Assembly (NCBI GenBank): GCA_016302505.1 | Contig: JAEDNL010000002.1 | Location: 297-64,296 of the forward strand | Length of the DNA stretch: 64,000 nucleotides | Reading direction: 5' to 3' | DNA from: Bacilli bacterium | Lineage (GTDB): Bacteria; Bacillota_I; Bacilli_A; RF39; UBA660 | In this document: positions 33,242-52,713 of the stretch, piece by piece | How positions within the stretch are numbered: position 1 is the stretch's first letter | Layout of the letters: every line of letters begins with the position of its first letter | Made by a program: the position numbers and the translations under genes | The notes under the pieces: model-generated | Seen by the model: only the letters and a program-made list of their open reading frames with translations | The model's database searches: none | What the model was told of the DNA's origin: nothing

Positions 33242-34837
33242 ATGAAAGAGTATGTTACTTTAAAATTAGAAGATGAAATGATAGTCTTTAATTATGAAAC
33301 TATTTCTGATGAAGCAATTAAAATGGTTGATAAGAATAGTTTTTTTAAAGATACTCTTTTTTATACGTTAAAATACTTTAGAAAAAATATAAACAATATT
33401 TGTAAAAATTTTACAAACATTAAAACTATGTATGTTAAAAGATTAGTAACATTTAAATATATTAGGGATATAATGTTTGATTTAAGGATAGAGAATCTTA
33501 AATTAGATTTTAGATCTACCATATCTTTAGAAGATTATGAATTGTTTTTAGGATTAGATAGTCTTAATAAAATAGATTGTTATTACATGCCAAAATTTAT
33601 TAAAGAAAAGTTTGAAAGTAAAGGTGTAATAGTAAATCTTTATAATAGGAATAAAGTGTCAGATAGATTTATGCTTCAAGTTGATGCGTTTGATTATGAG
33701 ACATTATATTATATTAAAAATCTATGTATTAAAGAAGATTATCCTAATTTATTAGATGATATAAAAGAGTTTTTAAGAATTAATTATAATTTAAAGGCAA
33801 TTCATATATACATATTTTCTAAAGATATAATTGAGGGAATAGTTAATTTAGTTAAAAACGATGAGGCAAGAAATATAATGTTTTTTTTGCATCAAGAATA
33901 TGATAAAGATAATTTTATAGTTAATAATATATCTTGGTTAAAAGAGTTAAATGAAAAATGTAAAAATGAATATACTTGTGAATTTAAAATAATATATTCT
34001 AATTCATTTTTAAGAAAGAATTTATTTAAGCAGTTAACATTTAATAATTTAAAACTTATAACTGTATTTGGCGTTTATGTGAGTTTAGTATCTATAATTA
34101 TAGTTAAATCTTATCAATTTGTTGAAAAAGCTAGTATTGATCAGATAAGAAATAATATTATTAGTGATTCTTATGCAGCTAGCGATACTGAAGATACAAC
34201 AATAGAAGATGAAGAAATAGAAGAACCCGCTGTTAGTAGTGATAAGACTACTAAGAAGGAAGTTACTAATAAATATACATTTAAAAATGCTATCAATGAA
34301 TTAATAAAAACTAATAATGAAACAGTAGGATTTTTAAAAGTAAATAATACTAATATTAATTATCCCGTAGTCCAGCATTCTGATAATAGTTATTATTTAA
34401 ATCATGATTTCTATAAGAAAAAGAAAGTAATGGGTTGGGTATTTTTAGATTATAGAAACTCACATGATAGTTTTGATTCTAATAATATTATATATGGACA
34501 CAATATGCCAAATAAAACTATGTTTGGTAGTTTAAGTAATGTTATGACGTCTTCATGGAGAAAGAATAAAAATAACTTAATAATTACTTATGATACTTTA
34601 AATAATAATAATAAATTTAAAATATTTTCTATTTATAAAGTAGATTATACTACAGATTATTTAAAAACTAAGTTCTCATCAAAAGAAGAATTTGATAGTT
34701 TTGTTAAAATGATTAGAAATAGAAGTACATTAAAGTCAGATGAGAAAGTAGAATATGGTGATAAAATACTTACATTATCTACTTGTGCTGATAAGGGTAA
34801 AAAACGACTTGTAGTGCATGCAGTACTTATAGATTAG
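33242..34837 (+). CDS. Bitopic membrane protein: ~270-aa cytoplasmic domain of unknown function + TM + acidic linker + class-B-sortase-like domain
   Basis: 531 aa. TM LKLITVFGVYVSLVSIIIV. Sortase B-like blocks VGFLKVNNTNINYPVVQHSDNSYYLNHD, IIYGHNM (His), LTLSTCADKG (Cys codon 34784-34786), RLVVHAVL (Arg). Confidence 0.75.
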   Translation: MKEYVTLKLEDEMIVFNYETISDEAIKMVDKNSFFKDTLFYTLKYFRKNINNICKNFTNIKTMYVKRLVTFKYIRDIMFDLRIENLKLDFRSTISLEDYELFLGLDSLNKIDCYYMPKFIKEKFESKGVIVNLYNRNKVSDRFMLQVDAFDYETLYYIKNLCIKEDYPNLLDDIKEFLRINYNLKAIHIYIFSKDIIEGIVNLVKNDEARNIMFFLHQEYDKDNFIVNNISWLKELNEKCKNEYTCEFKIIYSNSFLRKNLFKQLTFNNLKLITVFGVYVSLVSIIIVKSYQFVEKASIDQIRNNIISDSYAASDTEDTTIEDEEIEEPAVSSDKTTKKEVTNKYTFKNAINELIKTNNETVGFLKVNNTNINYPVVQHSDNSYYLNHDFYKKKKVMGWVFLDYRNSHDSFDSNNIIYGHNMPNKTMFGSLSNVMTSSWRKNKNNLIITYDTLNNNNKFKIFSIYKVDYTTDYLKTKFSSKEEFDSFVKMIRNRSTLKSDEKVEYGDKILTLSTCADKGKKRLVVHAVLID

Positions 34838-34846
34838 GAGGATAGA

Positions 34847-35488
34847 ATGAAAAAGATATTATTATTTATATCAATGTTAATTCCTGTTTATGTTAATGCG
34901 GTGTGTGATAATAGTGAAATAGTTAATTTAGGTAAACTTGCTAGTAACATTACATATGATACTGAATATTCTAAGAGTTTATCTAAATATACTGTTACAT
35001 TTTATAATGTAGTAGAAGATATATATTTAGAATATAATAATAAAAAGTATAGTCCTAATCAAAATAATGAGGTTACGATAAGTGGTTTGGAAGAGGGAAA
35101 TGTCATAGATGTAGTTGTTTATCCAAATGCTTCAGATTGTAGAAGTAGTTTATTAACAATAAGTGTTAAACTAAAATACTATAATACATTTTATAATGAT
35201 TCTAGGTGTAAAAAGTATGCTGATAATGGATGTAGCACTGTTTATTGTACTAATCAATTTTTAGATGTAAAACCTACACTAATATTGTTTGAAGAGTCTC
35301 TTAAAAATACATGTGAAGAACCAGCGATACCCTTATCAAAACCTGATAATGAAGAAGTTACATTATATGATAAAATAGCAGATTTTTTATTAGACTATGG
35401 TATCAAATTTTTATTAATCGCAATTAGTTTAACTGTATCAATATTAATATTTACAAATAAATATAGAAAAATTAAACATGGTATTTAA
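34847..35488 (+). CDS. Secreted Cys-containing protein with C-terminal membrane anchor
   Basis: 213 aa. Signal peptide ...PVYVNA/VCDN, several Cys, C-terminal TM (FLLIAISLTVSILIF) with a basic tail NKYRKIKHGI. No LPXTG/NPQTN-like motif precedes the anchor. Confidence 0.6.
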   Translation: MKKILLFISMLIPVYVNAVCDNSEIVNLGKLASNITYDTEYSKSLSKYTVTFYNVVEDIYLEYNNKKYSPNQNNEVTISGLEEGNVIDVVVYPNASDCRSSLLTISVKLKYYNTFYNDSRCKKYADNGCSTVYCTNQFLDVKPTLILFEESLKNTCEEPAIPLSKPDNEEVTLYDKIADFLLDYGIKFLLIAISLTVSILIFTNKYRKIKHGI

Positions 35489-35499
35489 AAGGAGTTAAA

Positions 35500-36120
35500 A
35501 TGAAAAAAGGAATAAAAATAGGTTTACTTATAACAATATTGTTATTCTCATCGAAAGTTTATGCAGAATGTAATAATAATGAACTTAATGATTGGGCAGA
35601 AAATGTTAGTATTGAATATAAAGATAATCTAAAATCAGGTGATTATAATTACCTTTTATTGGTTAGTCCATATAATGAATTAGCTACTGTTAAAGTTGTA
35701 TTAGATGATAAAGAATATTTAATAGATTATGATAGTGATTATAAAACTAATGTTGTTGGTAGTAACATTCATTTTGATGAAAAAAAATATATAATTAAAT
35801 TTTATGGTAATGAAAAGTCTGGTTGTAATAATGAATTATTAAGAGAACTTGAGTATAAAGTTCCTGGATATAATAAATATTCTGATTATGAATATTGTAA
35901 AAATAATAAAAATTTAGAAATTTGTAAGACTAATACTGATAATAAGAATTTAAGTGATGAAGAATTTAATAAAAAAATAGTAAAAGAAGAAGTTGAAGAA
36001 AAATCAATATTATCATTTATTAAAAATTATTGGTGTTTTGTGATTGTCCCTATAGTTATAGTGGCAGTAATTTATTATTATAAAGTATATTTATTAAAGA
36101 AAAAGGAGAATAAGAAATGA
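35500..36120 (+). CDS. Module A gene 1: small secreted Cys-containing protein with C-terminal anchor
   Basis: 206 aa. Signal peptide ...SSKVYA/ECNNNELNDWAENV and C-terminal TM + KKKENKK. Paralogue of 40470..41138, with shared blocks such as FYGNEKS-x-CN-x-ELLRE-[LI]-EYKVP. Confidence 0.65.
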   Translation: MKKGIKIGLLITILLFSSKVYAECNNNELNDWAENVSIEYKDNLKSGDYNYLLLVSPYNELATVKVVLDDKEYLIDYDSDYKTNVVGSNIHFDEKKYIIKFYGNEKSGCNNELLRELEYKVPGYNKYSDYEYCKNNKNLEICKTNTDNKNLSDEEFNKKIVKEEVEEKSILSFIKNYWCFVIVPIVIVAVIYYYKVYLLKKKENKK

Positions 36121-39100
36121 AAAAGTTAAGTAGATTATTTATAATTTCATCCTTATTCTTTATAGGGAATAGTAATGTTAATGCAGTTGTTTCTGTTAAT
36201 AGTGATACTGTTTATAAGATAGAAGAGCAAGGACCTGCTACTTATAAATATGTTGAAAGTAAAACTTCATCAATCGATAAATTTTATAAAGTAGTTGATT
36301 CAACTAAGTATATAATATTTAATACTACTGATGGAGATGTAGATTGTAAAGATAAAACAAGTTGTCAAAATATCGTTGATAAAAAGTGTGCAAATAAAGA
36401 TGATTGTTCTCTTGATTTGGTTGTTAATGAAAAAATAGCTCAGTCACTTGCAAATGATTACTGTAAAGAAAAAGACAACTGTACTGTAATGAAAATGTGT
36501 TGTGATAAAACCAATTGTATTAGTGAAGAAAAATGTATTTCTTCAAAAGAATTAAAAACAGTTGCAGTAGAAAAAGGAAAAGTAAGAAAACAATATAGTG
36601 TAATTGATACATTTCAAACTAGAATATGGAGATATAAAATAAATTATGGTTCTAAGTGGTCAGAAGCATATTGTATTCAACCAGGTAAAATGGGACCATT
36701 TGGTGGGCAAAATTATTTTTTAAATCATTCAATTGATGTAAGAAGTTGTACTTCAGTCTATGATAAAAATATTGGTTATCCATGTGGGCTTGCTGAAGTC
36801 TTCTATCAAGCATATAGTAAAAAATACGATGAATCAAATGAAGATGATTTTACTAGTATAAATATAGCATTAAGATTATGGATAAATTATTATTATAAAG
36901 TATATAATACATATAATTCATTATCTGATATTGATAAATCTGGGTATGAAAAATTAGATGATACTTACACGGAGTCATCAATTTATGAAAGTACTGTTCT
37001 TGCAATACTTGATAATTATAGTAGTGGTAAATGTAGTGATGCATCTAAATATAAAGGAAATATATTATGTGATAGTAAAAATAAAAATAATAATGTAATA
37101 TCAAGAGCTATTCAATTGTTTAATTTAGTTAGAAATGCTAAAACATTTCATGGTAATGAATTTATGAAAGCAGATACTATTAAAGATGCTCAATCTAAAA
37201 TAACTTTAATAGAAAAAGGATATAAAAATAATAAAAAAATATTTGAAGTGGAAGTTAAAGGACTTAAAGATGTAATTATAACGGATGAAACTAATAAAAA
37301 TATTACTTTATATGAATCTATATATAAGAGTTGTCATAATAAAGAAAATACCACTGAATGTAAAAAAGCTATTAAATTTACAGATGGTAATGGAACTTCT
37401 TATTATCCTGCGACTACTAATGCTGATGGAACATTTACAATTGATTGGGATAACACTCAAGGAAAAGATAGTTTAGTGTTCAAAGTTATCAATTATGAAG
37501 TATGTTATAAATCAACAGGAAACGATGTTTCTGATTCAAAAGCTGCTGTATATTTTGGAAGTGCTAGTGGTTATGATGCTAAATTAAGAATATATTATCC
37601 AAATAACAATAGTTATCAAATAATGGTTAGTTATTTTAATGAGGGATTTAAAGATAAGCTTGGTTCTAGCTGGGACTATAGAATTAAAATTAATATAGAT
37701 GATGATTCATATTGCGTGGATAATTGTAGTGATAAATGTAGTGATTCTAAACAATCAACTGATTTTGAACAATCAGGTTCAAAACAATTGTTAGGAACTT
37801 GTGGAGATGATGCTTCTTTGTATTCAGAATATACTATAGAAGATCCAGGAATGAGTTGTATTGTTAATTCGTGTAATAGTGTTACTAAAGACAAGTATGA
37901 AGAAAGTAAAGCTATATCTAATCAATACTGTAAAGTCTATTGTAGAAATACTACAAAATATTATCTTAAAAATAAAGTAGATGTTTATGCAGGAATGCAA
38001 TTTAGCTATGATTTAGGTAGTGAACTTATAAAAAACGGTATCATATCCTCACAAGTAAAACCTGATTATAAATTAACTAGTGTTGTTATGGAGCATAAAC
38101 AATGTACTAGTGTAATTGATAATGATAAATGGCAAAATGATTATAAAAACGCAAATAAAGATGCTAAGACTCAACTTGAATATGATTTATATAATTGTAA
38201 TTTATATAGTTCAAAAAATATGCCAAGTAAATATAATAACTATATAAATAAAAACACTGGTACAATAAGAGATTATTTATATAGTAGTGAACTTGATGAT
38301 TGTGTTAATGGAAGTAGTAATTGTAATAAAATTGATGTATCTTATGATGAGGGATATAAAGTTGTACTTAATAAAAATGTAAGAAAAGAAACTTCAAACA
38401 AAACATACTACTGTAGTAGTAATAATTGTTTTGATAATAGTGATGTTAATAGTTGTTCATCAGAAAAATCTAACATGAATGGTTCTATACCAAATAATAA
38501 ATATGCAACTGTATTCATTGATACACAATATGATTATTACTTAAAAACTAAATTTAAATATGAAACATATACAGGAAATATAATTACAAATGGTAAAACT
38601 GAAAATACAGTAGATCTACCATCATTTAGTTATCCTATAAAGAGTACTACTAGGACAGGTACTTATAATATAAAATATTCAATAACTAATATAGCAAAAA
38701 ATAAAGTATATGATTTTAATAATATTAAATATACATGTAAATATAATGTTTATAATGTAACTAAAAAATATGATTGTAATTATAAAACTGGAGAATGTTC
38801 TAATTCATGTTATGAAGTTAAAAATGGTGTAGCTGTTTTAAAGAGTGAATGTATGAGTTTTAAAAAATCTAATGATGTTGGTATGGGACTTATATATAGA
38901 AATGTTTCATTAGGAAAATTATTCCCTGCTAGTAGAGTTAATTATTCTAACTGGAGTGATTATAATTATGTAATTAATCCTGAGATTTATAATAAAAATT
39001 TTTCCAATAAGACTATTAATGTAAGTGAAATTAAAAAAACTATAGAAAATACTAGTGAAGAATTATATAAACAAGATAATGAACATTTAGAATATAGTTA

Positions 39101-39308
39101 TACTTTAACACCAGAGTCTATATCTAAAATAAAGGAATACAATAAAATTACTAATAATTATTTAGATAATACTCTTACTTGTAGTAAATACATTTCAGTA
39201 GGCTCAAATAATGATGATAATTCAAGGTTGTATTATGATTGTAAAAGTAGTTTCTTAAGAGATATTAAAAAACACGGTGTTATAGTTCATGCAGGAGGTG
39301 GTAACTAA
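36117..39308 (+). CDS. Module A gene 2: 1063-aa secreted cysteine-rich protein
   Basis: Signal peptide ...GNSNVNA/VVS. About 40 Cys by hand count. Blocks conserved with 41135..44326: AYCIQP (Cys codon 36672-36674), IGYPCGLAEVFYQA, ALRLWINYYY, TIEDPGMSCIVNSC, YCKVYCR, AGMQFSYDLG, KQCTSV, YRNVSLGKLFP. Its start overlaps the upstream stop (ATGA). Confidence 0.7.
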   Translation: MKKLSRLFIISSLFFIGNSNVNAVVSVNSDTVYKIEEQGPATYKYVESKTSSIDKFYKVVDSTKYIIFNTTDGDVDCKDKTSCQNIVDKKCANKDDCSLDLVVNEKIAQSLANDYCKEKDNCTVMKMCCDKTNCISEEKCISSKELKTVAVEKGKVRKQYSVIDTFQTRIWRYKINYGSKWSEAYCIQPGKMGPFGGQNYFLNHSIDVRSCTSVYDKNIGYPCGLAEVFYQAYSKKYDESNEDDFTSINIALRLWINYYYKVYNTYNSLSDIDKSGYEKLDDTYTESSIYESTVLAILDNYSSGKCSDASKYKGNILCDSKNKNNNVISRAIQLFNLVRNAKTFHGNEFMKADTIKDAQSKITLIEKGYKNNKKIFEVEVKGLKDVIITDETNKNITLYESIYKSCHNKENTTECKKAIKFTDGNGTSYYPATTNADGTFTIDWDNTQGKDSLVFKVINYEVCYKSTGNDVSDSKAAVYFGSASGYDAKLRIYYPNNNSYQIMVSYFNEGFKDKLGSSWDYRIKINIDDDSYCVDNCSDKCSDSKQSTDFEQSGSKQLLGTCGDDASLYSEYTIEDPGMSCIVNSCNSVTKDKYEESKAISNQYCKVYCRNTTKYYLKNKVDVYAGMQFSYDLGSELIKNGIISSQVKPDYKLTSVVMEHKQCTSVIDNDKWQNDYKNANKDAKTQLEYDLYNCNLYSSKNMPSKYNNYINKNTGTIRDYLYSSELDDCVNGSSNCNKIDVSYDEGYKVVLNKNVRKETSNKTYYCSSNNCFDNSDVNSCSSEKSNMNGSIPNNKYATVFIDTQYDYYLKTKFKYETYTGNIITNGKTENTVDLPSFSYPIKSTTRTGTYNIKYSITNIAKNKVYDFNNIKYTCKYNVYNVTKKYDCNYKTGECSNSCYEVKNGVAVLKSECMSFKKSNDVGMGLIYRNVSLGKLFPASRVNYSNWSDYNYVINPEIYNKNFSNKTINVSEIKKTIENTSEELYKQDNEHLEYSYTLTPESISKIKEYNKITNNYLDNTLTCSKYISVGSNNDDNSRLYYDCKSSFLRDIKKHGVIVHAGGGN

Positions 39309-40375
39309 TGAAAGAATCATTATGGGGTTATTTGATATTAGTATTAGGTGTTATAGTTACTACTGTTATACTTTTAGTAAATAGAGTAACAACAACAACA
39401 GAAGAAGATTATTATTTAGGACAAGAAGTTATGAAGTCAGCTATGCTTGATGCTATAGATTATGGAACTTATAGAACTACTGGTAAAATAGTTATGTCTA
39501 AAGAAAAATTTGTTGAAGTATTTATAAGAAGATTTTCTGAAAGCGTAACAAATAATAAAACATATAAATTAGATTTTTATGATATATATGAAGAACCTCC
39601 TAAAGCTAGTGTAAGAATAAGAGCAACATCAGGTAGTGCTACTATAAATGATGAGACACTTAATGTAACATTAGACACTGTTTTAAATGGTATATTAGAA
39701 ACTATATATGAACAATATTTAGATGGTATAACAACCACTGATAGATATTTTTATCATCAAAATAAAATTAATTATTATTATTCAAGTATTAATGATAAAA
39801 ATGAAGTGGTTGGTTCAACTACTGAAATAAAAGATGGTTCTAAAATAGTATTAGTACTTGATAAATACGCTGAGATTAATCCAAGTGAAATATTTAAATA
39901 TTATGCGGAAGGTAAAGTTGGAGCATCTATGAATGAAGTATCAGAAATATTATCAGCTTCAGCTTGTAATTATAAAGATTCTAGCGGAAAAGAGTATTGT
40001 AAAGGAATATATAACAATAAGATAGTGTATATTTATAGAAAGACATTATCTTATAAAAATAATACTAATACTAGTTTTAATAATCAAACAAAGAAAGCAT
40101 TAACATGTGGTATAAAATCTAGTTTTGACACTAAGTATAATAATAAAACTTATTCAGTAAAATATGTTAATAATAAAGAAGGAGCAACTATATATACAAA
40201 TACTAGTTTTAGTAAAGAAAAAGGAAGTTTAAGTTGCGGTAAATCTGTTATAGTTAATGGCTGTAATTATAAGAATAGTTCTAATACTTATTGTAAAATA
40301 ATTGATGAAAGTGGAAAAGATAATTACATAAATAAAAATTATTTAAGTGATAAACCACAAGAATGTGGTAGTTAA
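39308..40375 (+). CDS. Module A gene 3: N-terminally anchored (pilin-like leader) protein with conserved N-domain and Cys-bracketed SH3-like C-terminal repeats
   Basis: 355 aa. MKESLWG + hydrophobic helix. The first ~137 aa are about three-quarters identical to 44326..45804 by hand alignment. The C-terminus carries repeats like CNYKDSSGKEYCKGIYNNKIVYIYRKTLS. Its start overlaps the upstream stop (TAATG). Confidence 0.65.
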   Translation: MKESLWGYLILVLGVIVTTVILLVNRVTTTTEEDYYLGQEVMKSAMLDAIDYGTYRTTGKIVMSKEKFVEVFIRRFSESVTNNKTYKLDFYDIYEEPPKASVRIRATSGSATINDETLNVTLDTVLNGILETIYEQYLDGITTTDRYFYHQNKINYYYSSINDKNEVVGSTTEIKDGSKIVLVLDKYAEINPSEIFKYYAEGKVGASMNEVSEILSASACNYKDSSGKEYCKGIYNNKIVYIYRKTLSYKNNTNTSFNNQTKKALTCGIKSSFDTKYNNKTYSVKYVNNKEGATIYTNTSFSKEKGSLSCGKSVIVNGCNYKNSSNTYCKIIDESGKDNYINKNYLSDKPQECGS

Positions 40376-40406
40376 GATATTGTAATTTCAATATCTTTTC
40401 TTTTTA
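40374..40406 (+). terminator. Rho-independent terminator between module A and module B
   Basis: Stem AAGATATTG (40374-40382) / CAATATCTT (40389-40397), 6-nt loop, then a T-rich tail. Confidence 0.65.
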
Positions 40407-40469
40407 AATAAAATACTTTAAAAATTTTTTAAAATATATTATAATCATTATAGATAAAGTAGGTGAGTT

Positions 40470-45804: not shown

Positions 45805-45833
45805 GCTACTTTTGTTTGAAAAGTAGCTTTTCT
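45804..45833 (+). terminator. Strong Rho-independent terminator after module B
   Basis: Perfect 10-bp stem AGCTACTTTT (45804-45813) / AAAAGTAGCT (45819-45828), loop GTTTG, then TTTTC. Confidence 0.8.
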
Positions 45834-45836: not shown

Positions 45837-45866
45837 TTGATAAATTATTTCTATTTATGATATAAT
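45837..45866 (+). promoter_or_regulatory. Sigma-A-like promoter for the Tad core operon
   Basis: TTGATA (45837-45842), 18-nt spacer, TATAAT (45861-45866). Confidence 0.5.
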
Positions 45867-45908: not shown

Positions 45909-46706
45909 ATGAGTAATATATTAATAGGGATAAAAAGATTTTTAAAGAATAAAAATACAATAACAATTCTTGCATTACTTTTATGTGTTGGACTTATTTA
46001 TGCTGGTTACAATTGGAGAATTAAAAAAGCAACTGAGCCAATAAATGTTCCATATGCTATTCAAACACTTTCACCAAGAACACAAATAACTAGTGAAATG
46101 GTTGGTACTCGTAAAGTGGCAGGAAAAATTGTTACTAAAGATGTTATATTAAATCAAAATGAAATAATTAATAAATATGTTAGTAATGAAGCAGAAATTC
46201 CAGCAGGTAGTATGTTTTATAAATCAACTGTTATTGAATGGGAGGAAATGCCAACAAGTTTAACTGAGAATATACCTGATGGTAATACAATTGTGTCTCT
46301 TCCTGTTACAACAGAAACTACTTATGGAAATTCTATATTTCCTGGTAACTACATTGATTTATATTATGTAGGTACTTACAATGGAAAAACTTTAATAGGA
46401 AAATTTATTGAAAGTATTAAAGTTCTTTCAGTAACAGATAGTTCCGGTAATAATGTGTTTGAACAAAGCAGTGATATTCCATCTCCTTCATATATAATTT
46501 TTTCAGTACCTGAAGATATGCATTTATTATTAAGAAAAGCATTATATTTAAATGGTACTATATTCCCTGTACCAAGAAATTCAGAATATTCAAAAAATCC
46601 TAAGGCTACTGTAATAAGTAGTACACAAATACAACAATTAATACTTTCACAAACAGTTAATGTAAGTGAAAAAGATTTGAATTCAATAAAAATAGGAGGT
46701 AACTAA
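45909..46706 (+). CDS. cpaB: CpaB/RcpC-like Flp pilus assembly protein (SAF domain), copy 1
   Basis: ATG 45909 is 8 nt after GGAGG; the track's TTG 45894 is rejected. N-terminal TM, then INVPYAIQTLSPRTQITSEMVGTRKV...IPAGSMFY (SAF-like) and a beta-rich C-domain, the typical CpaB layout. Confidence 0.7.
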   Translation: MSNILIGIKRFLKNKNTITILALLLCVGLIYAGYNWRIKKATEPINVPYAIQTLSPRTQITSEMVGTRKVAGKIVTKDVILNQNEIINKYVSNEAEIPAGSMFYKSTVIEWEEMPTSLTENIPDGNTIVSLPVTTETTYGNSIFPGNYIDLYYVGTYNGKTLIGKFIESIKVLSVTDSSGNNVFEQSSDIPSPSYIIFSVPEDMHLLLRKALYLNGTIFPVPRNSEYSKNPKATVISSTQIQQLILSQTVNVSEKDLNSIKIGGN

Positions 46707-47488
46707 TGAAAAAGATATTTGCAAATAAAGGAGTTGTTACTTTCTTAGGTGGAATACTTTGTATAGTAATTTTGTTTTTTGCATATAGATATAGAGTTAA
46801 TAAAGAAATTAATCCTATTAGTGTTCCCTATGCTAAAACAAAACTAGAATCTAGGACTGAAATCACAAATGAAAATGTTGGTACAGTTAAAGTTCCTGCA
46901 TCTATGGTAACTGAAGGAGTTATAAGAGATAAAAGCCAAGTAATAGGAAAATATGTAAATTATAATACATTTATTCCAGCAGGTAGTTTATTTTATGCAT
47001 CTAGTGTAATTACATGGGATCAAATGCCTGATTCAGCATGGTCAGATATACCAGATGGTAATACAATTGTATATTTATCAGCTACTTCTACAACTACTGG
47101 TTCATTTATTTATCCTGGTGATAAAATAGATTTATATTTTAAAACTACTGATAATGGAAAACTTGTATATGGAAAATTAATTGAGGGAATTAAAGTTTTA
47201 GCAGTTAAAGATTCAACAGGTGCTCATATATTTAAGAAAACTGCTAGTCAAAAAGATTTTTCAACATTGATTTTCTCATTATCAGAAGATCTACATTTAT
47301 TACTTAGAAAATCTGGATATGTGTCTGGTGAAATAATTCCTGTAACTAGAAATCAAGATTATTGTAAAGATAAAGACTGTACAAAAGTTTCAAGTACATA
47401 TTTAAGAAACTTAATTGAATCACAAGTTGACAGTGCTGTTCAAGATAATACAACTAGCAGTGATAGTCAAGTTAAAGTAACAGAGTAA
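46706..47488 (+). CDS. cpaB: CpaB/RcpC-like Flp pilus assembly protein, copy 2
   Basis: 260 aa. A clear paralogue of the preceding gene (ISVPYAKTKLESRTEITNENVGTVKV...IPAGSLFY; LHLLLRK in both). Its start overlaps the upstream stop (TAATG). Confidence 0.7.
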   Translation: MKKIFANKGVVTFLGGILCIVILFFAYRYRVNKEINPISVPYAKTKLESRTEITNENVGTVKVPASMVTEGVIRDKSQVIGKYVNYNTFIPAGSLFYASSVITWDQMPDSAWSDIPDGNTIVYLSATSTTTGSFIYPGDKIDLYFKTTDNGKLVYGKLIEGIKVLAVKDSTGAHIFKKTASQKDFSTLIFSLSEDLHLLLRKSGYVSGEIIPVTRNQDYCKDKDCTKVSSTYLRNLIESQVDSAVQDNTTSSDSQVKVTE

Positions 47489-47521: not shown

Positions 47522-48667
47522 ATGGAAGATTTGGTATTTTCTCAAATTGATTTTGGACTTTTAATGCCATTGTTACAAGATGATGATATAACAGATATAT
47601 CATATTCTAACAATGGGCAAGTACATATTAAGACTCTTTCTCAAGGTATAAAACAAGTTAAAATTGAAGGTCTTAATAATGAAGTGATGGAAAAATTAGC
47701 ATTTCAATGTTCAAATGTAATGGGTAAGACATTTAATATGGCTCATCCACTACTTGATGCTGAAAGTGCTGAACTTCGTCTTAATTTTGTACATGAGTCA
47801 ATTGCAACTAATGGTATTGCTGTATTAATAAGAAAAACACCTGCTAAAATAAGACTTAATAAAGAAAAATTGGTTAGTGAAGATTATGTATCATTAAAAT
47901 TACATGATTTTCTAATTACATGTGTCCAAGGACACTGTAATATATTGGTTAGTGGTGAAACTGGTTCTGGAAAAACTGAACTTGTAAAATATTTAGCAAG
48001 TAAAATAAAAGAAGATGAAAAGATAATTACTATTGAAGATACATTGGAACTTCATTTAGATAAGATATATCCAACGCGAGATATAGTTGCTATGAAAACT
48101 AATAATATAGCATCATATTCAGATGTTTTAGTGGCGTGTATGAGACAAAATCCAAGATGGATTTTACTATCAGAAGTTCGTTCGGCTGAAGCTGTTATGG
48201 CAGTTAGAAACTCTATTTCTTCTGGACATAACATTTTATCAACAATTCATTCAGATAAAGCAAGTGCTATTCCAATGAGACTTTATTCATTATTAGAAAC
48301 AAGTCAAGATATTGATCAATTTATTAAAGGTATGCATAGATATATTCAACTAGGAATACATGTTAAAGGTTTTTTCTCTAAAAAATATAATAGGTTTCAA
48401 AGAGAAATAACACAAGTAGTTGAGTTTTATGTTGATGATGATAATGGTGAAGCTAAAGTAAATGTTTTATATTCAAGAGATTTGCTAGGAAATGAAGTAT
48501 ATAATAATCCAACTACGCATTTGATAGATTATTTATCTTCACAGGGAATTAGTATGCAAGAAGATCCATTTATACCAAAAGAAAGTGAAATAAAAGAAGT
48601 AAATGAAGATAATAAAGAGATAACTCAAGAGGTTAAACCTAATAATATAGAAATTATAGAGTTATAG
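47522..48667 (+). CDS. tadA: CpaF/TadA-family secretion ATPase (VirB11/PilB superfamily)
   Basis: 381 aa. Walker A SGETGSGKTE, Asp box IITIEDTLEL, Walker B region RWILLSEVR, His box GHNILSTIHS. Confidence 0.9.
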   Translation: MEDLVFSQIDFGLLMPLLQDDDITDISYSNNGQVHIKTLSQGIKQVKIEGLNNEVMEKLAFQCSNVMGKTFNMAHPLLDAESAELRLNFVHESIATNGIAVLIRKTPAKIRLNKEKLVSEDYVSLKLHDFLITCVQGHCNILVSGETGSGKTELVKYLASKIKEDEKIITIEDTLELHLDKIYPTRDIVAMKTNNIASYSDVLVACMRQNPRWILLSEVRSAEAVMAVRNSISSGHNILSTIHSDKASAIPMRLYSLLETSQDIDQFIKGMHRYIQLGIHVKGFFSKKYNRFQREITQVVEFYVDDDNGEAKVNVLYSRDLLGNEVYNNPTTHLIDYLSSQGISMQEDPFIPKESEIKEVNEDNKEITQEVKPNNIEIIEL

Positions 48668-48680: not shown

Positions 48681-49580
48681 ATGTATATAGAAATTCTCAT
48701 TATTGCTGTTATATTAATATTCATATATATATATAGAAAGAATACTGGAGATAGTTCTTACAAATTTATTAATAAAACAATAGGTGATACTTATAATAAA
48801 TATGCTCCTTATTCATTTAAAGTTGTAAGAGAGAAAGCTAAAGAACTAGGACAAGAATATACCAGTAGACAATATGTTGTTCAAATAATAATATTTGGTG
48901 TATCAGCTGCTTTTATAGCATATTTATATTTTTATAGTATATTGTGGAGCGTAGTATATGCAGTGGCTGCGATATTGATGGTTCCATACTTAGCATATAT
49001 GAGATGTAAAAAAGCATATAGTGAGTTTATATTTGAACAAATACAAGTATATACAACTAATGTAATAATGGAATTTAATACAACTCAATCTTTTGTAAAA
49101 GCATTAGAAGGTGTAAGAGATTCTGGAGTGTTAGAAGATCCATTACTTACTGATGTTAAAGAAATGATACAAATGTCATATGAAAATGGTACGATTGATG
49201 AAGCTATTAGATTTATGAATGAAAAATATGATTACTATGTAATAAAAAATATGCATCAATTATTCTTACAAATAACAAAAGAAGGTTCTAAAGATTCAGG
49301 TGAAGCTCTAGAAGGAATGCTTCAAGATATAGATATGTTAGTTGAAAGTGTATATAGAGATAGAATAGATAGAACAACTTTTTATAAGAAATTTATTACA
49401 TTTGGTTTAATGCTATATTTGTTAGTATTATTGATACAATTATTCTTAGGAGAGGCTAGTTATTTAGCATTATTAGATGAAGTATTTGTAGTTATATTAT
49501 TACATTGTGTAATTTTAATAAATACATACTTCTTAATATCAGGTATTAAATATTATCATGAAGATGTGGGGGCTGAATAA
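48681..49580 (+). CDS. tadB: TadB-like (GspF/T2SS-F family) inner-membrane platform protein
   Basis: 299 aa. N-terminal TM, a cytoplasmic helical domain, then C-terminal TMs. Located immediately after the ATPase, as in tad/cpa loci. Confidence 0.65.
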   Translation: MYIEILIIAVILIFIYIYRKNTGDSSYKFINKTIGDTYNKYAPYSFKVVREKAKELGQEYTSRQYVVQIIIFGVSAAFIAYLYFYSILWSVVYAVAAILMVPYLAYMRCKKAYSEFIFEQIQVYTTNVIMEFNTTQSFVKALEGVRDSGVLEDPLLTDVKEMIQMSYENGTIDEAIRFMNEKYDYYVIKNMHQLFLQITKEGSKDSGEALEGMLQDIDMLVESVYRDRIDRTTFYKKFITFGLMLYLLVLLIQLFLGEASYLALLDEVFVVILLHCVILINTYFLISGIKYYHEDVGAE

Positions 49581-50377
49581 TGGAAATAGTTTTAGTAGGT
49601 ATAATATTATTGTTTTTATTTAATTATATAGGAGCATTCAATTTTAATACATTTATAGCTGATAACAAAGCATTATTTTCTAAATTAAAAGAAGATGACT
49701 ATGACTTTCTTTTAGTATCAAAATATGGAGATCAAGTTGATGTTAATGTAAAATTTCAATCTAGGGTAAAAAGTGCTATTATAGCATTTATAATAGGTTT
49801 AATAATTGCGATTACATCTATATCAGGACTTAATTTTGCTGTTAAGCTGGTTGGTGTGTTTTTAGTAACGTACTTTGTATTTAAAAATGATTATAATTCA
49901 GTTAAAGCTTATTATAAGAAACATTTACATGATATTAATTTAAAGTTACCATATTATTTAAAGAGTTTAGAAATATTAATTCAACATTATACAGTACCTG
50001 TCGCAATAACAAGAAGTTTAGAACAAGCACCTGAGATGTTTAAACCTGGTCTTAGAGAATTAATAGCATCAATTGATTCAGGAGATTCTACAATTGAACC
50101 ATATATGGCTTTTGCTAGAAGGTATCCTGTAAGAGATTCAATGAGAATGATGAGACTTTTGTATAGACTTAGTCTTGGTAGTCAAGAAAGAAAACAAGAA
50201 CAATTAATAGTATTTTCAAGAACAATATCAAATTTACAATCTAAATCAAGAGATACTAAGTATAAAGAAAGATTAGAAAAAATGGAAAAGAAGACTATGA
50301 CAATGTTTACTGCAACTGGTGCAGGAGTAATGATTATATTAGTACTTTCTATTATGCAACAGTTTACAGCTATGTAA
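49580..50377 (+). CDS. tadC: TadC-like (GspF/T2SS-F family) inner-membrane platform protein
   Basis: 265 aa with the same topology class as TadB. Its start overlaps the tadB-like stop (TAATG). Position is as in tad loci. Confidence 0.65.
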   Translation: MEIVLVGIILLFLFNYIGAFNFNTFIADNKALFSKLKEDDYDFLLVSKYGDQVDVNVKFQSRVKSAIIAFIIGLIIAITSISGLNFAVKLVGVFLVTYFVFKNDYNSVKAYYKKHLHDINLKLPYYLKSLEILIQHYTVPVAITRSLEQAPEMFKPGLRELIASIDSGDSTIEPYMAFARRYPVRDSMRMMRLLYRLSLGSQERKQEQLIVFSRTISNLQSKSRDTKYKERLEKMEKKTMTMFTATGAGVMIILVLSIMQQFTAM

Positions 50378-50385: not shown

Positions 50386-50414
50386 TTGATTAAGAATAAT
50401 TATTATTGTATAAT
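50386..50414 (+). promoter_or_regulatory. Near-consensus sigma-A promoter directly upstream of the pilin-like gene
   Basis: TTGATT (50386-50391), 17-nt spacer, TATAAT (50409-50414), followed by the strong RBS AAGGAGG before ATG 50456. Confidence 0.55.
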
Positions 50415-50455: not shown

Positions 50456-50749
50456 ATGAAAGAAGCAACAGGAGAATTAAATATGACAGTTGTTACTATA
50501 GTAGCAATCGCTGCTGTAGCATTATTATTCTATGTATTCTTATGGCCAACAATACAAAAGAGTATTGTTAACCAAACATGTAAGACTTATGGTAGTAATT
50601 ACGGTGCTGTTTATGTTAAAGATGCTAATTCTGGGACTGGTGCTAAAGTTGCCGAGTGGAAGTGCTGCCCAGGCAAAGTTACCAATGGTAAAGTTGGTAA
50701 ACCGGATAAAAATAGTGCTGACTGTAAAGATGCAAACTTGGAAAAATAA
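50456..50749 (+). CDS. Small pilin-like protein (candidate major subunit)
   Basis: 97 aa. Short polar leader MKEATG followed by a ~25-aa hydrophobic helix (ELNMTVVTIVAIAAVALLFYVFLW), then a small Gly/Lys-rich globular part with 4 Cys. It has its own promoter and a strong RBS. Confidence 0.6.
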   Translation: MKEATGELNMTVVTIVAIAAVALLFYVFLWPTIQKSIVNQTCKTYGSNYGAVYVKDANSGTGAKVAEWKCCPGKVTNGKVGKPDKNSADCKDANLEK

Positions 50750-50771
50750 CGAATAATAAAGGAAAGAGCAT

Positions 50772-51305
50772 ATGAAGGAATCAATAGGTGGAACTTGGTT
50801 AATTGGTATAGTGGCACTATTTATAGTGCTCTTTTCTGCTTTTATGGCATATTCAATTAATTATACCAAAGCTTTTAGAGCAAAAAATGGTATTATTGAT
50901 TTGATAGAACAAAATGAAGGGTATACTTTTTATAATGGTACTACGCCAATAGATAATCTTAGTAATGAAAGTTTAAATAACGATAAGAGTGTTCAAGCAC
51001 AAGCATTTGGTTTAATTAAATCAATGGGATATGACTATGGTGATAGTAAAAGTAATGGAATAATTTGTAATAATGATGGTTCTATATCTGATGCATCAAT
51101 AATTCAAAAAGCTGATCAACCTGGAGGTTTTTGTCTATATCGGATATGTAATAATGATGGAACTGTTAGATATAAAGTTGTTACTTATGTTATGATGAAA
51201 TTTCCAGTAATTAATTTTGGTATAACTGTTCCAGTTAAAGGTGAAACAAAAACATTATATTATGAATTAGATAATGCATACAATGGTCTTTGTACTAATA
51301 AATAA
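50772..51305 (+). CDS. Pseudopilin-like (TadE/TadF-analogous) protein
   Basis: 177 aa. MKESIGG + hydrophobic helix (TWLIGIVALFIVLFSAFMAY), followed by a globular domain with several Cys. Its position after the pilin matches that of tadE/F. Confidence 0.45.
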   Translation: MKESIGGTWLIGIVALFIVLFSAFMAYSINYTKAFRAKNGIIDLIEQNEGYTFYNGTTPIDNLSNESLNNDKSVQAQAFGLIKSMGYDYGDSKSNGIICNNDGSISDASIIQKADQPGGFCLYRICNNDGTVRYKVVTYVMMKFPVINFGITVPVKGETKTLYYELDNAYNGLCTNK

Positions 51306-51328
51306 TAAATAATCAGGGAGATGATGTT

Positions 51329-52303
51329 ATGAATGTAATGGTATACAATAAATATAAAGAATTATTAATGGGGCTTAATTTAGACATTATGAAGTCTATA
51401 GAGGGAGTTTTTAATGTTGATGAGATAATTGATACTTTTAGTAATTATTATTATGATAAAATGATTCTTGATATTACTGCTATTAGAGATTATCAAAATG
51501 CTGATAATTTACAAAAATTAGCAATGAATATTAATATGGAAAATGTTATTTTATTATTAGATGATAGTCCTGAATGTAATTCTAAGACTTATCTTTCTAA
51601 ATTAATTAGTCTTGGTATTTATAATTTTACAAGAAATACAGAAGGAATTAATTATTTATTAGTACATCCTCATACATATAAAGATGTCGTTAATATTCAT
51701 AATATAAATTCAGTAGATGCTGATAATACTATGAATGCTAATATGAATACTAATAGTATTAATGATACTGACCCTGCTTTAGGTTTTACTACCGGGGGTA
51801 AATTAAGAGTAATAGGTTTTAAAAATGTTACTCCTCATGCTGGGGCAACATCATTAATATATATGCTTAAAAAAGTGTTATCTGAGACTCGTAGATGTGC
51901 CGCATTGGAAGTTAATAAAGTAGACTTTCTATATTACAATGATAAAGATATGATTAGTACTACTACTAGTGAACTTCCTAAGGAATTTATGAAAAAACAA
52001 ATGTATGATGTTCTTCTTATAGATTTAAATGATTATGATGATTTATCTATATGTTCAAGTGTATTCTATTTACTTGAACCATCTACATTAATGGTAAATA
52101 AATTAGTTCATAAAAAGAGAGATATTTTTGATACTTTAAAAAATGAGAAAGTAGTGTTAAATAAGTGTAATTTAAGTCGTGAGGATGTTGCTACATTTGA
52201 ATATGAAACAAAATTAAAATTGTTTTATACACTTCCTCCGATGGATGATAGAAAGCTTGATAATGCTGAATTAAGAAAATTTATTAGTAAGATGGGCTTA
52301 TAA
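51329..52303 (+). CDS. tadZ: TadZ/CpaE-like protein: atypical receiver-like domain + ParA/MinD-like domain with degenerate Walker A
   Basis: 324 aa. The N-half is receiver-like (MILDITAIRDY...VILLLDDSPE...LISLGIYNFTRN). The C-half is ParA-like (LRVIGFKNVTPHAGATSLIYML, YDVLLIDLND), but PHAGATS replaces K-G-G-x-G-K-[ST]. Confidence 0.5.
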   Translation: MNVMVYNKYKELLMGLNLDIMKSIEGVFNVDEIIDTFSNYYYDKMILDITAIRDYQNADNLQKLAMNINMENVILLLDDSPECNSKTYLSKLISLGIYNFTRNTEGINYLLVHPHTYKDVVNIHNINSVDADNTMNANMNTNSINDTDPALGFTTGGKLRVIGFKNVTPHAGATSLIYMLKKVLSETRRCAALEVNKVDFLYYNDKDMISTTTSELPKEFMKKQMYDVLLIDLNDYDDLSICSSVFYLLEPSTLMVNKLVHKKRDIFDTLKNEKVVLNKCNLSREDVATFEYETKLKLFYTLPPMDDRKLDNAELRKFISKMGL

Positions 52304-52368
52304 TCGAGTATTCTATTGACAAAAAAGGCAAAATCATATAAAATTTTAATTAGTGAGGAGTGGTGAAC

Positions 52369-52713
52369 ATGAGCGAAGAAACTATTTGTAGTGATTTAGG
52401 ACCTATATTAAGAATAGTAGGAATTGTTATTTGGGGAATTAAAGTAGTTGTACCAATTATTTTAATAGTTGTTGGTATGATTGATTTGGCAAAAGCAGTT
52501 ACTGAAAAGAGTGATGATAAAATTAAAGCTGCTCAAAATAGTTTAATTAAAAAAGCTATTTCAGCAGTATTGGTTTTCTTAGTTGTAACTATTGTAGGAT
52601 TATTAATGAAATTAATAGGTGATAGTAGTTATCAAGCATGTGTAGACTGTATTAATCATCCATTTAGTGAAAGTTGTAAGGCTCCAAATGGATACATTCC
52701 ATCTGGTGATTAA
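52369..52713 (+). CDS. Small two-TM membrane protein with Cys-rich tail
   Basis: ATG 52369 is 8 nt after GAGGAG; the track's GTG 52360 is rejected. Two hydrophobic helices flank a charged loop (DLAKAVTEKSDDKIKAAQNSLIKK). The tail is YQACVDCINHPFSESCKAP. Last gene before the terminator. Confidence 0.5.
   Translation: MSEETICSDLGPILRIVGIVIWGIKVVVPIILIVVGMIDLAKAVTEKSDDKIKAAQNSLIKKAISAVLVFLVVTIVGLLMKLIGDSSYQACVDCINHPFSESCKAPNGYIPSGD

Follow-up and report, generated by a model that had tools for sequence, protein, structure and literature searches.

An 18-gene operon of uncultured gut Bacilli that may build a divergent Tad-type filament presenting giant cysteine-rich adhesins

Gene content, layout and conservation of the island

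The DNA analysed here, hereafter called the window, is a stretch of 64,000 nucleotides (nt) from a Bacilli bacterium (assembly GCA_016302505.1, contig JAEDNL010000002.1, positions 297 to 64,296), and its subject is an island of forward-strand genes in which a sequence-only reading had recognised a Tad/Flp-type pilus-like core joined to a sortase-domain protein and cysteine-rich secreted giants. Comparative analysis established that this island is genuine and belongs to an operon of 18 genes that is strongly conserved among uncultured, RF39-like Bacilli of the gut. The 17 forward-strand open reading frames of the island (ORFs), named G1 to G17 in their order, span 33242-52713 and are separated by intergenic gaps of 9-94 nt or overlap by 1 nt (TAATG) or 4 nt (ATGA), in keeping with the tight same-strand packing claimed for them. 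The 3′ end of the island at a terminator at 52720 stands, whereas its 5′ boundary had to be moved, as the operon begins one gene earlier, with a co-conserved upstream gene (32650-33171) named G0. The G+C content of the window is approximately 25%. The genes and signals of the operon are as follows (aa, amino acids; TM, transmembrane segment):

32650-33171, +, G0: membrane-anchored protein of family PF20207 (E 2.6e-20), upstream of the island as first delimited
33242-34837, +, G1: bitopic class B sortase fusion of 531 aa (TIGR03064, PDB SrtB matches)
34847-35488, +, G2: small type I membrane protein with signal peptide, Cys-containing ectodomain and C-terminal TM
35500-36120, +, G3: small type I membrane protein, first gene of cassette 1, its stop overlapping the G4 start (ATGA)
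36117-39308, +, G4: secreted giant of 1063 aa with 40 Cys; Cys186 in AYCIQPGK, Gln501 in YYPNNNSYQIM
39308-40375, +, G5: DUF5411 protein (PF17424), with a pilin-like module at aa 1-135 (MKESLWGY, then a TM helix) and a Cys-containing C-terminal domain
40374-40397, +: weak AT-only 9-bp hairpin, then a U tract, between the two cassettes; absent from the terminator scan output
40470-41138, +, G6: paralogue of G3, first gene of cassette 2
41135-44326, +, G7: secreted giant of 1063 aa with 37 Cys, paralogue of G4; AYCIQPSK, Gln in RQVMMTY
44326-45804, +, G8: second DUF5411 protein (PF17424, E 7.9e-48), 492 aa, with a different, longer C-terminal region
45803-45829, +: terminator-like hairpin between G8 and G9 (terminator scan)
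45837-45866, +: best promoter-like match of the island, TTGATA-18-TATAAT with TG, 3′ of the preceding hairpin
45909-46706, +, G9: CpaB/RcpC-like protein with N-terminal TM (hhalign against Ralstonia CpaB)
46706-47488, +, G10: second CpaB-like protein, paralogue of G9 (hhalign E 3e-98)
47522-48667, +, G11: secretion ATPase of the CpaF/FlaI/VirB11 group (PF00437, E 2e-29, 102.7 bits versus 24.9)
48681-49580, +, G12: polytopic protein of 299 aa, approximately 5 TM and a presumably cytoplasmic loop of approximately 130 aa; candidate TadB-like platform subunit
49580-50377, +, G13: second polytopic membrane protein, 265 aa; candidate TadC/FlaJ-like platform subunit
50386-50414, +: promoter-like TTGATT-17-TATAAT upstream of G14 (motif match)
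50456-50749, +, G14: candidate major pilin of 97 aa with 4 Cys, N-terminus MKEATGELNMTV
50772-51305, +, G15: candidate minor pilin or pseudopilin, M[KR][ED][AS]xGG and then a TM helix; duplicated in distant loci
51329-52303, +, G16: conserved protein without TM, presumably cytoplasmic; no Pfam, NCBIfam or PDB match
52360-52713, +, G17: small membrane protein with 2-3 TM and a Cys-containing tail (PF18895, E 1.8e-4, below cutoff)
52720-52732, +: terminator-like hairpin, then a T run, closing the island (terminator scan)

Conservation was assessed by a scan with an alignment of DUF5411, the family of G5 and G8, with one genome taken per species; this yielded 75 loci, all ORFs of which were searched with the proteins of the window and then with family profiles. 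The loci are almost all from low-GC gut or rumen metagenome-assembled genomes labelled 'Clostridium sp. CAG', Bacilli, Mycoplasmatota/Tenericutes or Erysipelotrichaceae, the closest relative being Clostridium sp. CAG:1000 at 91% identity, and the GTDB family CAG-1000 belongs to the order RF39 (PMC8035907). A canonical gene order, G0 G1 G2 [G3-type, giant, DUF5411] G9 G10 G11 G12 G13 G14 G15 G16 G17, recurs in dozens of genomes, and relative to it the three-gene cassette of the window has been duplicated in tandem. The core order of small protein, giant, DUF5411, CpaB, ATPase, G12, G13, pilin, G15, G16 and G17 persists down to approximately 40% DUF5411 identity, with distant loci lacking G10 and possessing two G15 paralogues and up to four G17 paralogues. 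The giant gene directly precedes the DUF5411 gene in 54 of the 75 loci, and an automatic rule placed the ATPase block no more than 4 kb after DUF5411 in 48 of the 62 loci with enough downstream DNA; as this rule mis-scored at least two loci (L013 and L038) as satellites, that is, as cassettes away from tad-like genes, the corrected figures are approximately 50 loci with the block and approximately 10 true satellites. Since the whole gene order recurs in approximately 50 species-level genomes, the two halves of the island represent one conserved unit. Scattering of the 5′ genes without tad genes, which had been named beforehand as a finding that would speak against a joint apparatus, was not seen, DUF5411 lying upstream of the CpaB/ATPase block in approximately 50 of the 62 loci, and the gene-neighbourhood survey that had been proposed revealed co-occurrence of giant and DUF5411 homologues with the tad-like block across related genomes.

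The junctions and expression signals of the operon were also inspected. A C-terminal ...GGN is common to G4, G7 and G9 (39285-39311, 44303-44329 and 46683-46709), and was considered as a processing motif; this was rejected because it corresponds to the Shine-Dalgarno sequence of the overlapping next gene, as read at the G4/G5 junction, where the overlap at 39308 reads GCAGGAGGTGGTAACTAATG and AGGAGG sits within G4. By their ORF coordinates G7 and G9 overlap G8 and G10, respectively, in like manner, and this arrangement suggests translational coupling. The ORF of G9 opens at TTG 45894, while an ATG at 45909 follows GGAGG and is probably the actual start. Two internal terminators had been placed at approximately 40374 and 45804, of which the latter was recovered by the terminator scan and the former was not, as its AT-only hairpin fails the GC criterion of the scan and the region 40365-40470 folds no better than shuffled sequence; the terminator said to close the island at 52720 was recovered as well. 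Promoter-like matches numbered 184, as compared to 174 +/- 15 in shuffled sequence, so that as a class they are not above chance.

Candidate motor, pilins and adhesin cassettes

The 3′ part of the operon had been described as a recognisable Tad core, which overstates the case, as there is no Flp motif, TadZ is undetectable and the link of the putative platform proteins to T2SSF is remote. Among solved structures G11 comes nearest to FlaI (E 1.8e-20, 76.7 bits), CpaF (7e-20, 74.8 bits) and archaeal GspE2 (1.5e-18, 70.4 bits), with VirB11 (2e-13, 53.6 bits) and PilB/GspE (1e-9 or weaker, at most 41 bits) well behind; it misses every NCBIfam equivalog cutoff, the VirB11, TadA and FlaI models scoring alike at 105-115 bits. 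Both proteins that had been called CpaB-like deserve that name: G9 aligns with Ralstonia CpaB over 171 columns (hhalign 93.8%, E 1.8e-7), with matches to TIGR03177 (E 1.6e-8) below cutoff and to PF16976 (28.0 bits) just under it, and G10, its paralogue, gives weak SAF and RcpC matches.

G12 and G13 are among the well conserved products of the operon, with mean column identities across loci of 76% and 67%, respectively, and their size, position after the ATPase and TM layout agree with TadB/TadC. The TadB- and TadC-like labels they had received are not supported directly by Pfam, NCBIfam or PDB, where neither protein has a sequence match and where profiles of G12, G13, G16 and the G1 N-terminal domain retrieve nothing from PDB below E of approximately 0.7; what does support the labels is a remote T2SSF/FlaJ link obtained by chained profiles. 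Direct hhalign comparison with TadB/C was colinear at P of approximately 2e-3, and Pfam scans of distant G12 homologues and of 50 G12, G13 and G16 relatives returned one weak T2SSF match, in a distant G12 homologue (P0306, E 0.002), and one weak CbiA match, the latter at E 0.022 in a single protein of the 50, of which 10 are G16-family members. Five-member plasmid family profiles, compared by hhalign, link G12 to p38 of pLS20-type plasmids (69.8%, 241 columns) and p38 in turn to proteobacterial TadB/C (73.6%, E 2.9e-5), and likewise G13 to plasmid p39 (94.9%, E 4.7e-8) and p39 to a FlaJ-annotated plasmid protein (93.4%). G12 and G13 are thus probable platform subunits, the best evidence being these p38/p39 profile chains.

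The N-terminus of G14 is almost invariant, MKEATGE(L/A)N(M/I)TV(V) followed by a hydrophobic helix, and a comparison with Ralstonia Flp by hhalign was not significant; the protein has no Pfam match. It shares with G5, G8 and G15 an N-terminus that is short and polar, ends in Gly and is followed by a hydrophobic helix, which in DUF5411 takes the form MKESxWGY; on reading the sequences, none of the four has a Glu at +5. G15 is weakly related to p40-like plasmid proteins (hhalign P 3e-4 to 1e-3). G16 had been regarded as TadZ-like, and this label does not hold, as it has no Pfam, NCBIfam or PDB match and its hhalign comparison with TadZ gave P 0.18; its GFKNxTxHAGATS segment reads as at best a degenerate P-loop. 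G17 weakly resembles TrbC/VirB2, and some of its copies in distant loci have long extensions.

The three small proteins noted for a signal peptide and a C-terminal anchor, G2, G3 and G6, do have these features and constitute one family (hhalign E 3.4e-27) with a Cys-containing ectodomain and a basic tail. The two secreted 1063-aa proteins described as cysteine-rich, G4 and G7, were confirmed as such by count (40 and 37 Cys) and are 34% identical to each other; both begin with a Sec signal peptide of the usual kind and are themselves without an anchor. In G4 the N-terminal half is variable and conservation is high from residue 560 (aa 560-1063). Neither giant matches Pfam or NCBIfam, and Pfam found no thioester or other domain in eight further, diverse giants (thioester-domain thresholds E 0.1 for G4/G7 and E 1 for the eight). 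Database relatives of the giants are very few (7 matches), those of DUF5411 numerous, and a 42-sequence profile of the giants gave at least 6, with the 8000-candidate word prefilter being full, probably of unrelated low-complexity proteins.

A motif, aYC[IL][QD]PGk.gP..G..Y, is present in the N-terminal half of 40 of the 73 giants examined. Its YC[IL][QD]PG part fits the thioester-domain Cys motif defined as [YFL]C-hydrophobic-polar (PMC8092201) and is very similar to FCIDPDKDAPFGGQSY in a protein encoded on a Bacillus plasmid, whose annotation reads 'thioester domain-containing' (hhalign 80.7%, E 1.3e-5). Comparisons of the giants with plasmid thioester-domain proteins gave overall 49-81% probability and E 1e-5 to 2e-4, the values for G4 being 62-81% and E 1e-5 to 8e-5. 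Among 39 giants chosen for the Cys motif and long enough for an extended alignment, both the Cys and a Gln in R.Y....Q[IV]M, approximately 315 aa past the Cys, are invariant. In a long hhalign alignment YYPNNNSYQIM of G4 is placed, Gln on Gln, on FLPNSSNYQRL and LYMPNKDIQRL of plasmid proteins, and the position of this plasmid Gln is that of Gln256, the thioester Gln in pLS20 Tie (PMC8092201). The giants are therefore probably thioester-forming adhesins, as judged from these sequence alignments. An AlphaFold2 (AF2) model of G4 based on an 11-sequence alignment was unusable, with a predicted local distance difference test score (pLDDT) of 48.8, and its Foldseek matches are meaningless and were disregarded. 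Satellite cassettes of the form [G2/G3-like][giant of approximately 850-1140 aa][DUF5411 of approximately 135-145 aa] are present away from tad-like genes in L048, L049, L051, L053-L055, L058-L060, L064 and L065, sometimes two in tandem, and look like a reservoir of alternative adhesin units.

The two anchored MKESLWG proteins that had been called pilin-leader-like, G5 and G8, both proved to be DUF5411 members and are predicted to be pilin-like: PF17424 scores 164 bits for G5 (E 2.3e-48) and 162 bits for G8, as compared to a cutoff of 30, with model positions 1-132/133 of 134 covered. The N-terminal 135-aa DUF5411 module is 55-70% identical among proteins with wholly different C-terminal parts, and the C-terminal domains found on homologues include dockerins, Listeria-Bacteroides repeats, peptidase_C39_2 (C39-like) and EF-hand domains. 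AF2 prediction for G5 from 72 homologues yielded a 47-residue helix (2-48) followed by a pair of short helices and an antiparallel sheet of three strands (85-129), with pLDDT of approximately 80-94 over most of the module. DUF5411 thus looks like a protein with the helix-plus-sheet shape of type IV pilins, an assignment made from the predicted shape together with the N-terminal pattern. The C-terminal domain of G5 falls in Foldseek weakly near SH3b/cell-wall-binding domains (probability approximately 0.9, E 0.05 or weaker).

At the head of the operon G1 consists of an N-terminal domain of approximately 270 aa, a single TM (aa 270-288), an acidic linker and a sortase domain (aa 324-525). The claim of a membrane-tethered class B sortase domain is well supported, with TIGR03064 scoring 163.8 bits versus a cutoff of 153.75, PDB SrtB chains from C. 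difficile, B. anthracis, Listeria and S. aureus matching at E 1e-30 to 2e-36 (5gyj, 4ux7 and 2oqw at approximately 1e-36), and the His-Cys-Arg triad kept in 35 G1 homologues (IIYGHxM, TLSTC and RLVVHA). The N-terminal domain is highly conserved and presumably cytoplasmic, and its profile found nothing significant and no detectable relative among PDB sequences. No LPXTG, NPQTN, NPKTG or SPXTG motif is present in the island proteins, nor is such a C-terminal signal found in window ORFs of at least 80 aa; in the G2 and G3 families a TM segment is accompanied by a basic tail, but no sorting motif is conserved. G2, which always adjoins G1 across loci, was considered as the sortase substrate and rejected, as it lacks such a motif and the conserved feature of its subfamily is a near-invariant, presumably cytoplasmic tail (...RK(I/V)KHGI-COOH). 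The sortase fusion is found in 26 of 48 loci, belonging to one subclade, and this restriction indicates an accessory rather than a core part; in its place more distant loci have a polytopic protein of approximately 535 aa. In L062, L063, L070, L074 and L075 the ~535-aa protein upstream of the G2-like gene starts MILRKPYAF and, as read from its sequence, consists of an N-terminal part with several hydrophobic stretches and a large hydrophilic domain after them.

G0 heads the operon directly upstream of G1 in approximately 30 loci or relatives, and its family PF20207 is labelled DUF6568 or PedC-like depending on the tool output. It was considered as the missing disulfide oxidoreductase and rejected, as the family lacks CxxC: G0 has no Cys, and operon-head homologues have 0-2 Cys and no CxxC. 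In three loci (L024:1680-2771, L025:1650-2768 and L026:741-3036) canonical type IV pilins (MNKNGFTLVELLAVIAIL..., 362-375 aa) lie between G0 and the sortase fusion, and these genomes therefore presumably encode a conventional PilD/ComC-type prepilin peptidase elsewhere.

Relation to known systems and genomic surroundings

The operon resembles the Tad systems of Caulobacter (Cpa) and Aggregatibacter (Tad) in having a single ATPase of the CpaF/FlaI/VirB11 group, immediately followed by genes for two half-size putative platform proteins and preceded by CpaB/RcpC-like protein(s), and a small candidate pilin with candidate minor pilins within the same operon. As in Tad and the Kil system of Myxococcus, there are large variable proteins which pilin-like modules would couple to the fibre, with alternative sets in the genome (Kil tips, TadG). 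It differs in that a Flp motif, TadV and a secretin are missing and TadZ is not detectable, the cell being single-membrane, and in that its putative platform proteins and pilins are beyond the reach of Pfam. Its proposed adaptor is DUF5411 rather than TadE/F/G, its proposed cargo is a separate Sec-exported giant rather than a minor-pilin domain, and a sortase fusion, a PF20207 protein and the small type I membrane proteins come in addition. Interchangeable tips made of minor pilins have been documented for Tad pili in Myxococcus and proposed for TadG-bearing pathogens (PMC12075869), so that the principle of swappable tips is known while the parts used by the island are different.

The giants were also compared with the class II thioester adhesins (BaTIE, SaTIE, EfmTIE86 and Tie). 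In both, an N-terminal region after the signal peptide bears the Cys motif (YCIQ in the giants) and, within P-N-x-x-x-Y-Q-x-(L/M), a Gln that is invariant; the giants, however, hold an insertion of approximately 130 aa between Cys and Gln and have no Pfam match, contain 37-40 Cys where pLS20 Tie has a single Cys in its thioester domain, and lack a CnaB stalk or LPXTG, their C-terminal 500 aa representing a new conserved module.

Unexpected relatives were found on plasmids. In tblastn searches against plasmids G11 retrieved CpaF/VirB11 genes from Enterococcus, Bacillus (pLS20 family, pXO1 and pXO2), Listeria, Paraclostridium and Paenibacillus, with identities of 28-35%; for the ATPase of the colinear module described next, identity is 30-35% and E 1e-36 to 1e-39. 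Plasmids bearing the module include pZB18 of E. faecium (L077), a Bacillus pLS20-family plasmid (L078) and three others (L084, L085 and L087), and Listeria pLIS40, a Paraclostridium plasmid and pXO2 are among the related ones. Colinear with the island, the plasmid module comprises a thioester/SpaA-like adhesin, a gene of approximately 125 aa, the ATPase and membrane proteins of approximately 270 and 240 aa, and continues with an N-anchored, pseudopilin-like protein of approximately 120 aa, tiny Flp-like ORFs and a TrbC/VirB2 gene. In pLS20 itself these are genes 34 and 36-41, encoding Tie, p36, the 'VirB11' p37 and p38-p41, and DUF5411 aligns with p36 over 97 columns (hhalign 85.5%, E 5.7e-6). 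The pLS20-type module differs from the island in its setting, an operon for conjugation by type IV secretion that includes VirD4 and VirB4. It has no CpaB, no counterpart of G16, no sortase fusion and none of the small type I proteins, and has adhesins of approximately 770 aa with CnaB stalks and few Cys.

Tie has been shown experimentally to be required for efficient conjugation of pLS20, and it has no sorting signal, is sortase-independent and is anchored by an unknown mechanism (PMC8092201), while p37 is treated as the VirB11 of the type IV secretion system and no role is given for gene 36 or genes 38-41 (PMC8557374). No paper linking pLS20 genes 36-41 to a Tad-like filament was found in the literature searched. 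By colinearity and profile similarity the island turns out to be a chromosomal relative of the pLS20-type conjugative plasmid module, and this likeness suggests that pLS20 genes 36-41 may build a Tad-like filament carrying the Tie adhesin.

The combination of genes in the island had been thought undescribed. The exact system is indeed uncharacterised, but the DUF5411/CpaF outline had been flagged by Miller et al. 2022 and a colinear pLS20-type module exists. In that study, which supplied the sole mention of DUF5411 in the literature searched, gene embedding was used to predict a putative new 'secretion-related' operon of Clostridia (Roseburia, Ruminococcus and Eubacterium), a computational prediction for which no mechanism was proposed (PMC9523054). 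As described there, DUF5411 is likewise found together with a CpaF-type ATPase, a PilC/GspF-like protein and a large protein of the 'cell invasion'/internalin-like kind, and the large protein has the PF09479 Listeria-Bacteroides repeat that is also present on a G4 homologue (P0004) and on many DUF5411 proteins. The predicted operon differs in having 8-9 genes, a single 434-aa PilC-like protein and DUF5411 proteins of 112-127 aa; its supplementary files contain no CpaB or sortase term, and Cys-rich giants are not described in the portion of the text seen (PMC9523054). The RF39-type system has thus been outlined by one computational study and never characterised. A Tad-like cluster of TANB77 is similarly divergent, conserved in an uncultured gut Firmicute order and endowed with several pilin-like genes (PMC11680825); it was rejected as the same system because its architecture differs, with a fused 693-aa TadBC, a 640-aa ATPase and detectable TadZ and CpaE, and with DUF5411, giants and sortase missing from its gene table (PMC11680825). 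A genome survey of RF39 and RFN20 makes no mention of pili, sortase or adhesins.

The island is flanked by housekeeping genes, namely an HD-domain gene and QueG upstream, and genes for a TagD-like cytidylyltransferase, an LtaS-like sulfatase and an LCP-family protein downstream. One related locus (L001) also has an HD-domain gene upstream of G0, and several others have ORFs matched in size, strand and position upstream and downstream (LtaS-sized), which, together with the housekeeping nature of the flanks, indicates vertical inheritance. No tRNA genes, Rfam matches, integrase or other mobility genes were found in the window, and no VirB4, VirD4 coupling protein, relaxase or VirB6/8 among the ORFs of the 64-kb window by Pfam (and NCBIfam for the island). 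A mobile element or conjugation system was therefore rejected, in view of the absence of tRNA, Rfam, integrase and type IV secretion genes and of the housekeeping flanks. The absence from the window of Dsb/VKOR-type proteins, secretin, prepilin peptidase and LPXTG-type substrates, which had been noted before, was borne out by Pfam and motif scans, with no A24 peptidase, secretin or Dsb/VKOR protein found by Pfam in window ORFs of at least 110 aa or in G14. Equally, the Cys enrichment noted for extracytoplasmic island products was substantiated, at 1.8-4.1% of residues as compared to 0.3-0.6% in the other exported proteins of the window.

Other parts of the window also encode putative surface proteins. 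A second same-strand island (9067-26100, +, plus 3452-4105) consists mostly of uncharacterised proteins; it includes three S26 signal-peptidase-like genes (3452-4105, 12056-12610 and 18206-18757) and encodes three small N-anchored proteins in which SYAWF/TYGWM comes directly past the TM (15413-18197). Further products are a DUF2357 protein and a giant of 2443 aa with BspA-type leucine-rich repeats (BspA-LRR) and a CBM2 module (18769-26100). It may represent a signal-peptidase-dependent (SipW/TasA- or SipA-like) fibre or surface-protein locus. A 179-aa protein with collagen triple-helix repeats (5223-5762, -) adjoins a GT2 glycosyltransferase with TPR repeats (4136-5209, -), a pair reminiscent of BclA-type glycosylated surface filaments. 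Finally, two secreted cadherin-like proteins are encoded at 57911-61602 (-), one with SH3b domains and a type I dockerin, and the dockerins on this protein and on DUF5411 homologues hint at cohesin-dockerin-type surface assemblies in the clade.

The proposed filament and its alternatives

Taken with moderate confidence, the most plausible interpretation is that the operon builds a very divergent filament of the Tad-type/archaeal lineage which presents giant modular adhesins on a single-membrane, wall-bearing Bacillota cell. The composite surface apparatus envisaged in the sequence-only reading is thereby retained in so far as the island is one conserved unit and the modules carried by DUF5411 fit display on a fibre, whereas the sortase does not stand as a core part. 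From gene order and remote homology we infer a scheme in which the G11 ATPase would drive a putative platform of the half-size membrane proteins G12 and G13, the CpaB-like G9 and G10 would form an envelope collar or conduit, and G14 and G15 would provide the major subunit of the shaft and a minor pilin, respectively. Each three-gene cassette would supply one adhesin unit, consisting of the small anchored protein (G3 or G6), the giant (G4 or G7) and its DUF5411 adaptor (G5 or G8). The giant, rich in disulfides, would be exported by Sec and fold outside the cell, where G3 or G6 may keep it at the membrane before loading; the adaptor would then bind the conserved C-terminal half of the giant and, because of its type IV pilin-like N-terminal helix, could be loaded into the filament, most simply at the tip, with all protein-protein contacts in the scheme being postulated in this way. 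The variable N-terminal half of the giant would be carried past the wall, and as it bears the thioester Cys and Gln motifs, binding to the target would probably be covalent, provided that the thioester forms. Tandem and satellite cassettes would supply interchangeable tips. G0, the sortase fusion G1 and G2 would be lineage-specific accessories, possibly acting in the wall to fix or mature some portion of the apparatus.

Several observations weigh against such a filament. The organism is uncultured and no filament has been observed; any function of the sortase domain, G0, G16 and G17 is moreover left unexplained by the model. The Pfam T2SSF, TadE and Flp models give no match to G12-G15, G14 has neither the Flp G/XXXXEY motif nor E-Y at +5/+6, and no A24 prepilin peptidase was found in the window or among the unassigned ORFs of the 75 loci. 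Foldseek comparison of the DUF5411 (G5) model returned no significant PDB pilin match, the best having E 0.05. As for the giants, the Pfam thioester-domain model misses all 10 tested, and their Cys-Gln spacing is approximately 315 aa as compared to approximately 188 in pLS20 Tie. In addition, satellite cassettes occur without neighbouring tad-like genes, and the terminator-like hairpin and promoter-like site between G8 and G9 permit separate regulation of the two parts.

These last two observations are also what would be expected if the island consisted of two separate neighbouring systems, with G0-G8 forming a surface-protein locus that depends on the sortase and G9-G17 a Tad-like pilus operon of its own, since the hairpin is followed by the best promoter-like match, giant/DUF5411 cassettes lack tad-like genes in approximately 10 loci and the sortase fusion is found in just 26 of 48. 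This division is nevertheless improbable, as DUF5411 lies immediately upstream of CpaB in 48-50 deeply diverged loci, including those that lack the sortase, the adjacency of adhesin, DUF5411-like protein and ATPase is kept on unrelated plasmids, G2-G8 are without a sortase substrate motif, and the N-termini of DUF5411, G14 and G15 are of one type. Another reading considered was a pseudopilus akin to type II secretion, in which a short piston of G14, G15 and DUF5411 would push the Sec-exported giants through the thick wall without formation of a lasting pilus, the giants being released as soluble or wall-bound effectors. The giants do bear Sec signal peptides of the usual kind and lack an anchor, Miller et al. 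2022 called DUF5411/CpaF operons 'secretion-related', the structural matches of the G5 C-terminal domain are, weakly, SH3b/wall-binding-like, and type IV filament machines include secretion systems. However, the modular pilin design of DUF5411 with swappable display domains, dockerins among them, fits presentation better than a piston, every giant comes with a DUF5411 partner and a small anchored partner belonging to it alone, and the separate 97-aa pilin, with its near-invariant N-terminus, looks like a major subunit; we regard the pseudopilus as unlikely.

The plasmid relatives raise the further prospect that the island is a domesticated or chromosomal mating-pair-formation module serving cell-cell aggregation for DNA transfer, and not adhesion to a host or substrate. 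Its homology with the plasmid module is colinear and extends to Tie (PMC8092201), and G17 is weakly TrbC/VirB2-like, but the 64-kb window contains no VirB4, VirD4, relaxase, VirB6/8 or other conjugation gene, there are no tRNA or integrase marks, and the housekeeping flanks (QueG, TagD and LtaS) and the matching ORF layout in relatives point to vertical inheritance, so that a role in mating appears highly improbable. A presenting filament remains our preferred interpretation, and it leads to a broader, more tentative suggestion, which we consider possible without expecting it: that the island and the pLS20-type module together represent an unrecognised type IV filament subfamily of single-membrane Bacillota. 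In this conceivable subfamily a DUF5411/p36 adaptor pilin would couple a separately Sec-exported thioester-type adhesin to a Tad-like fibre, and pilins of the MKEATG type would be handled without a locus-encoded prepilin peptidase; in RF39 a sortase would have been built in, joined through its fused, presumably cytoplasmic N-terminal domain.

If the proposal is correct, pLS20-family plasmids make a pilus-like structure, which would explain how Tie stays on the cell; a testable explanation is thereby offered both for the retention of Tie and for the roles of 'VirB11' and genes 36 and 38-41 of pLS20. DUF5411 likewise gains a testable function. The manner in which the fibre would be armed differs from known type IV filaments, in that a separate giant would be handed to it by a small pilin-like adaptor, with spare cassettes held elsewhere in the genome. 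The oxidation of 37-40 cysteines with no Dsb-type enzyme nearby in the window is a puzzle, and a sortase domain fused to a large N-terminal domain without a recognisable substrate constitutes unexplained enzymology. RF39-type Bacilli are common, uncultured and genome-reduced members of human and animal gut communities, and to our knowledge almost nothing has been reported of how they attach. Complete genomes among the related records are 1.2-1.5 Mb in size, and an operon of approximately 20 kb that is kept in order across dozens of species with genomes of this size is probably central to their lifestyle. Should the filament exist as proposed, these abundant uncultured gut Bacilli would attach covalently to their targets by means of swappable pilus tips.

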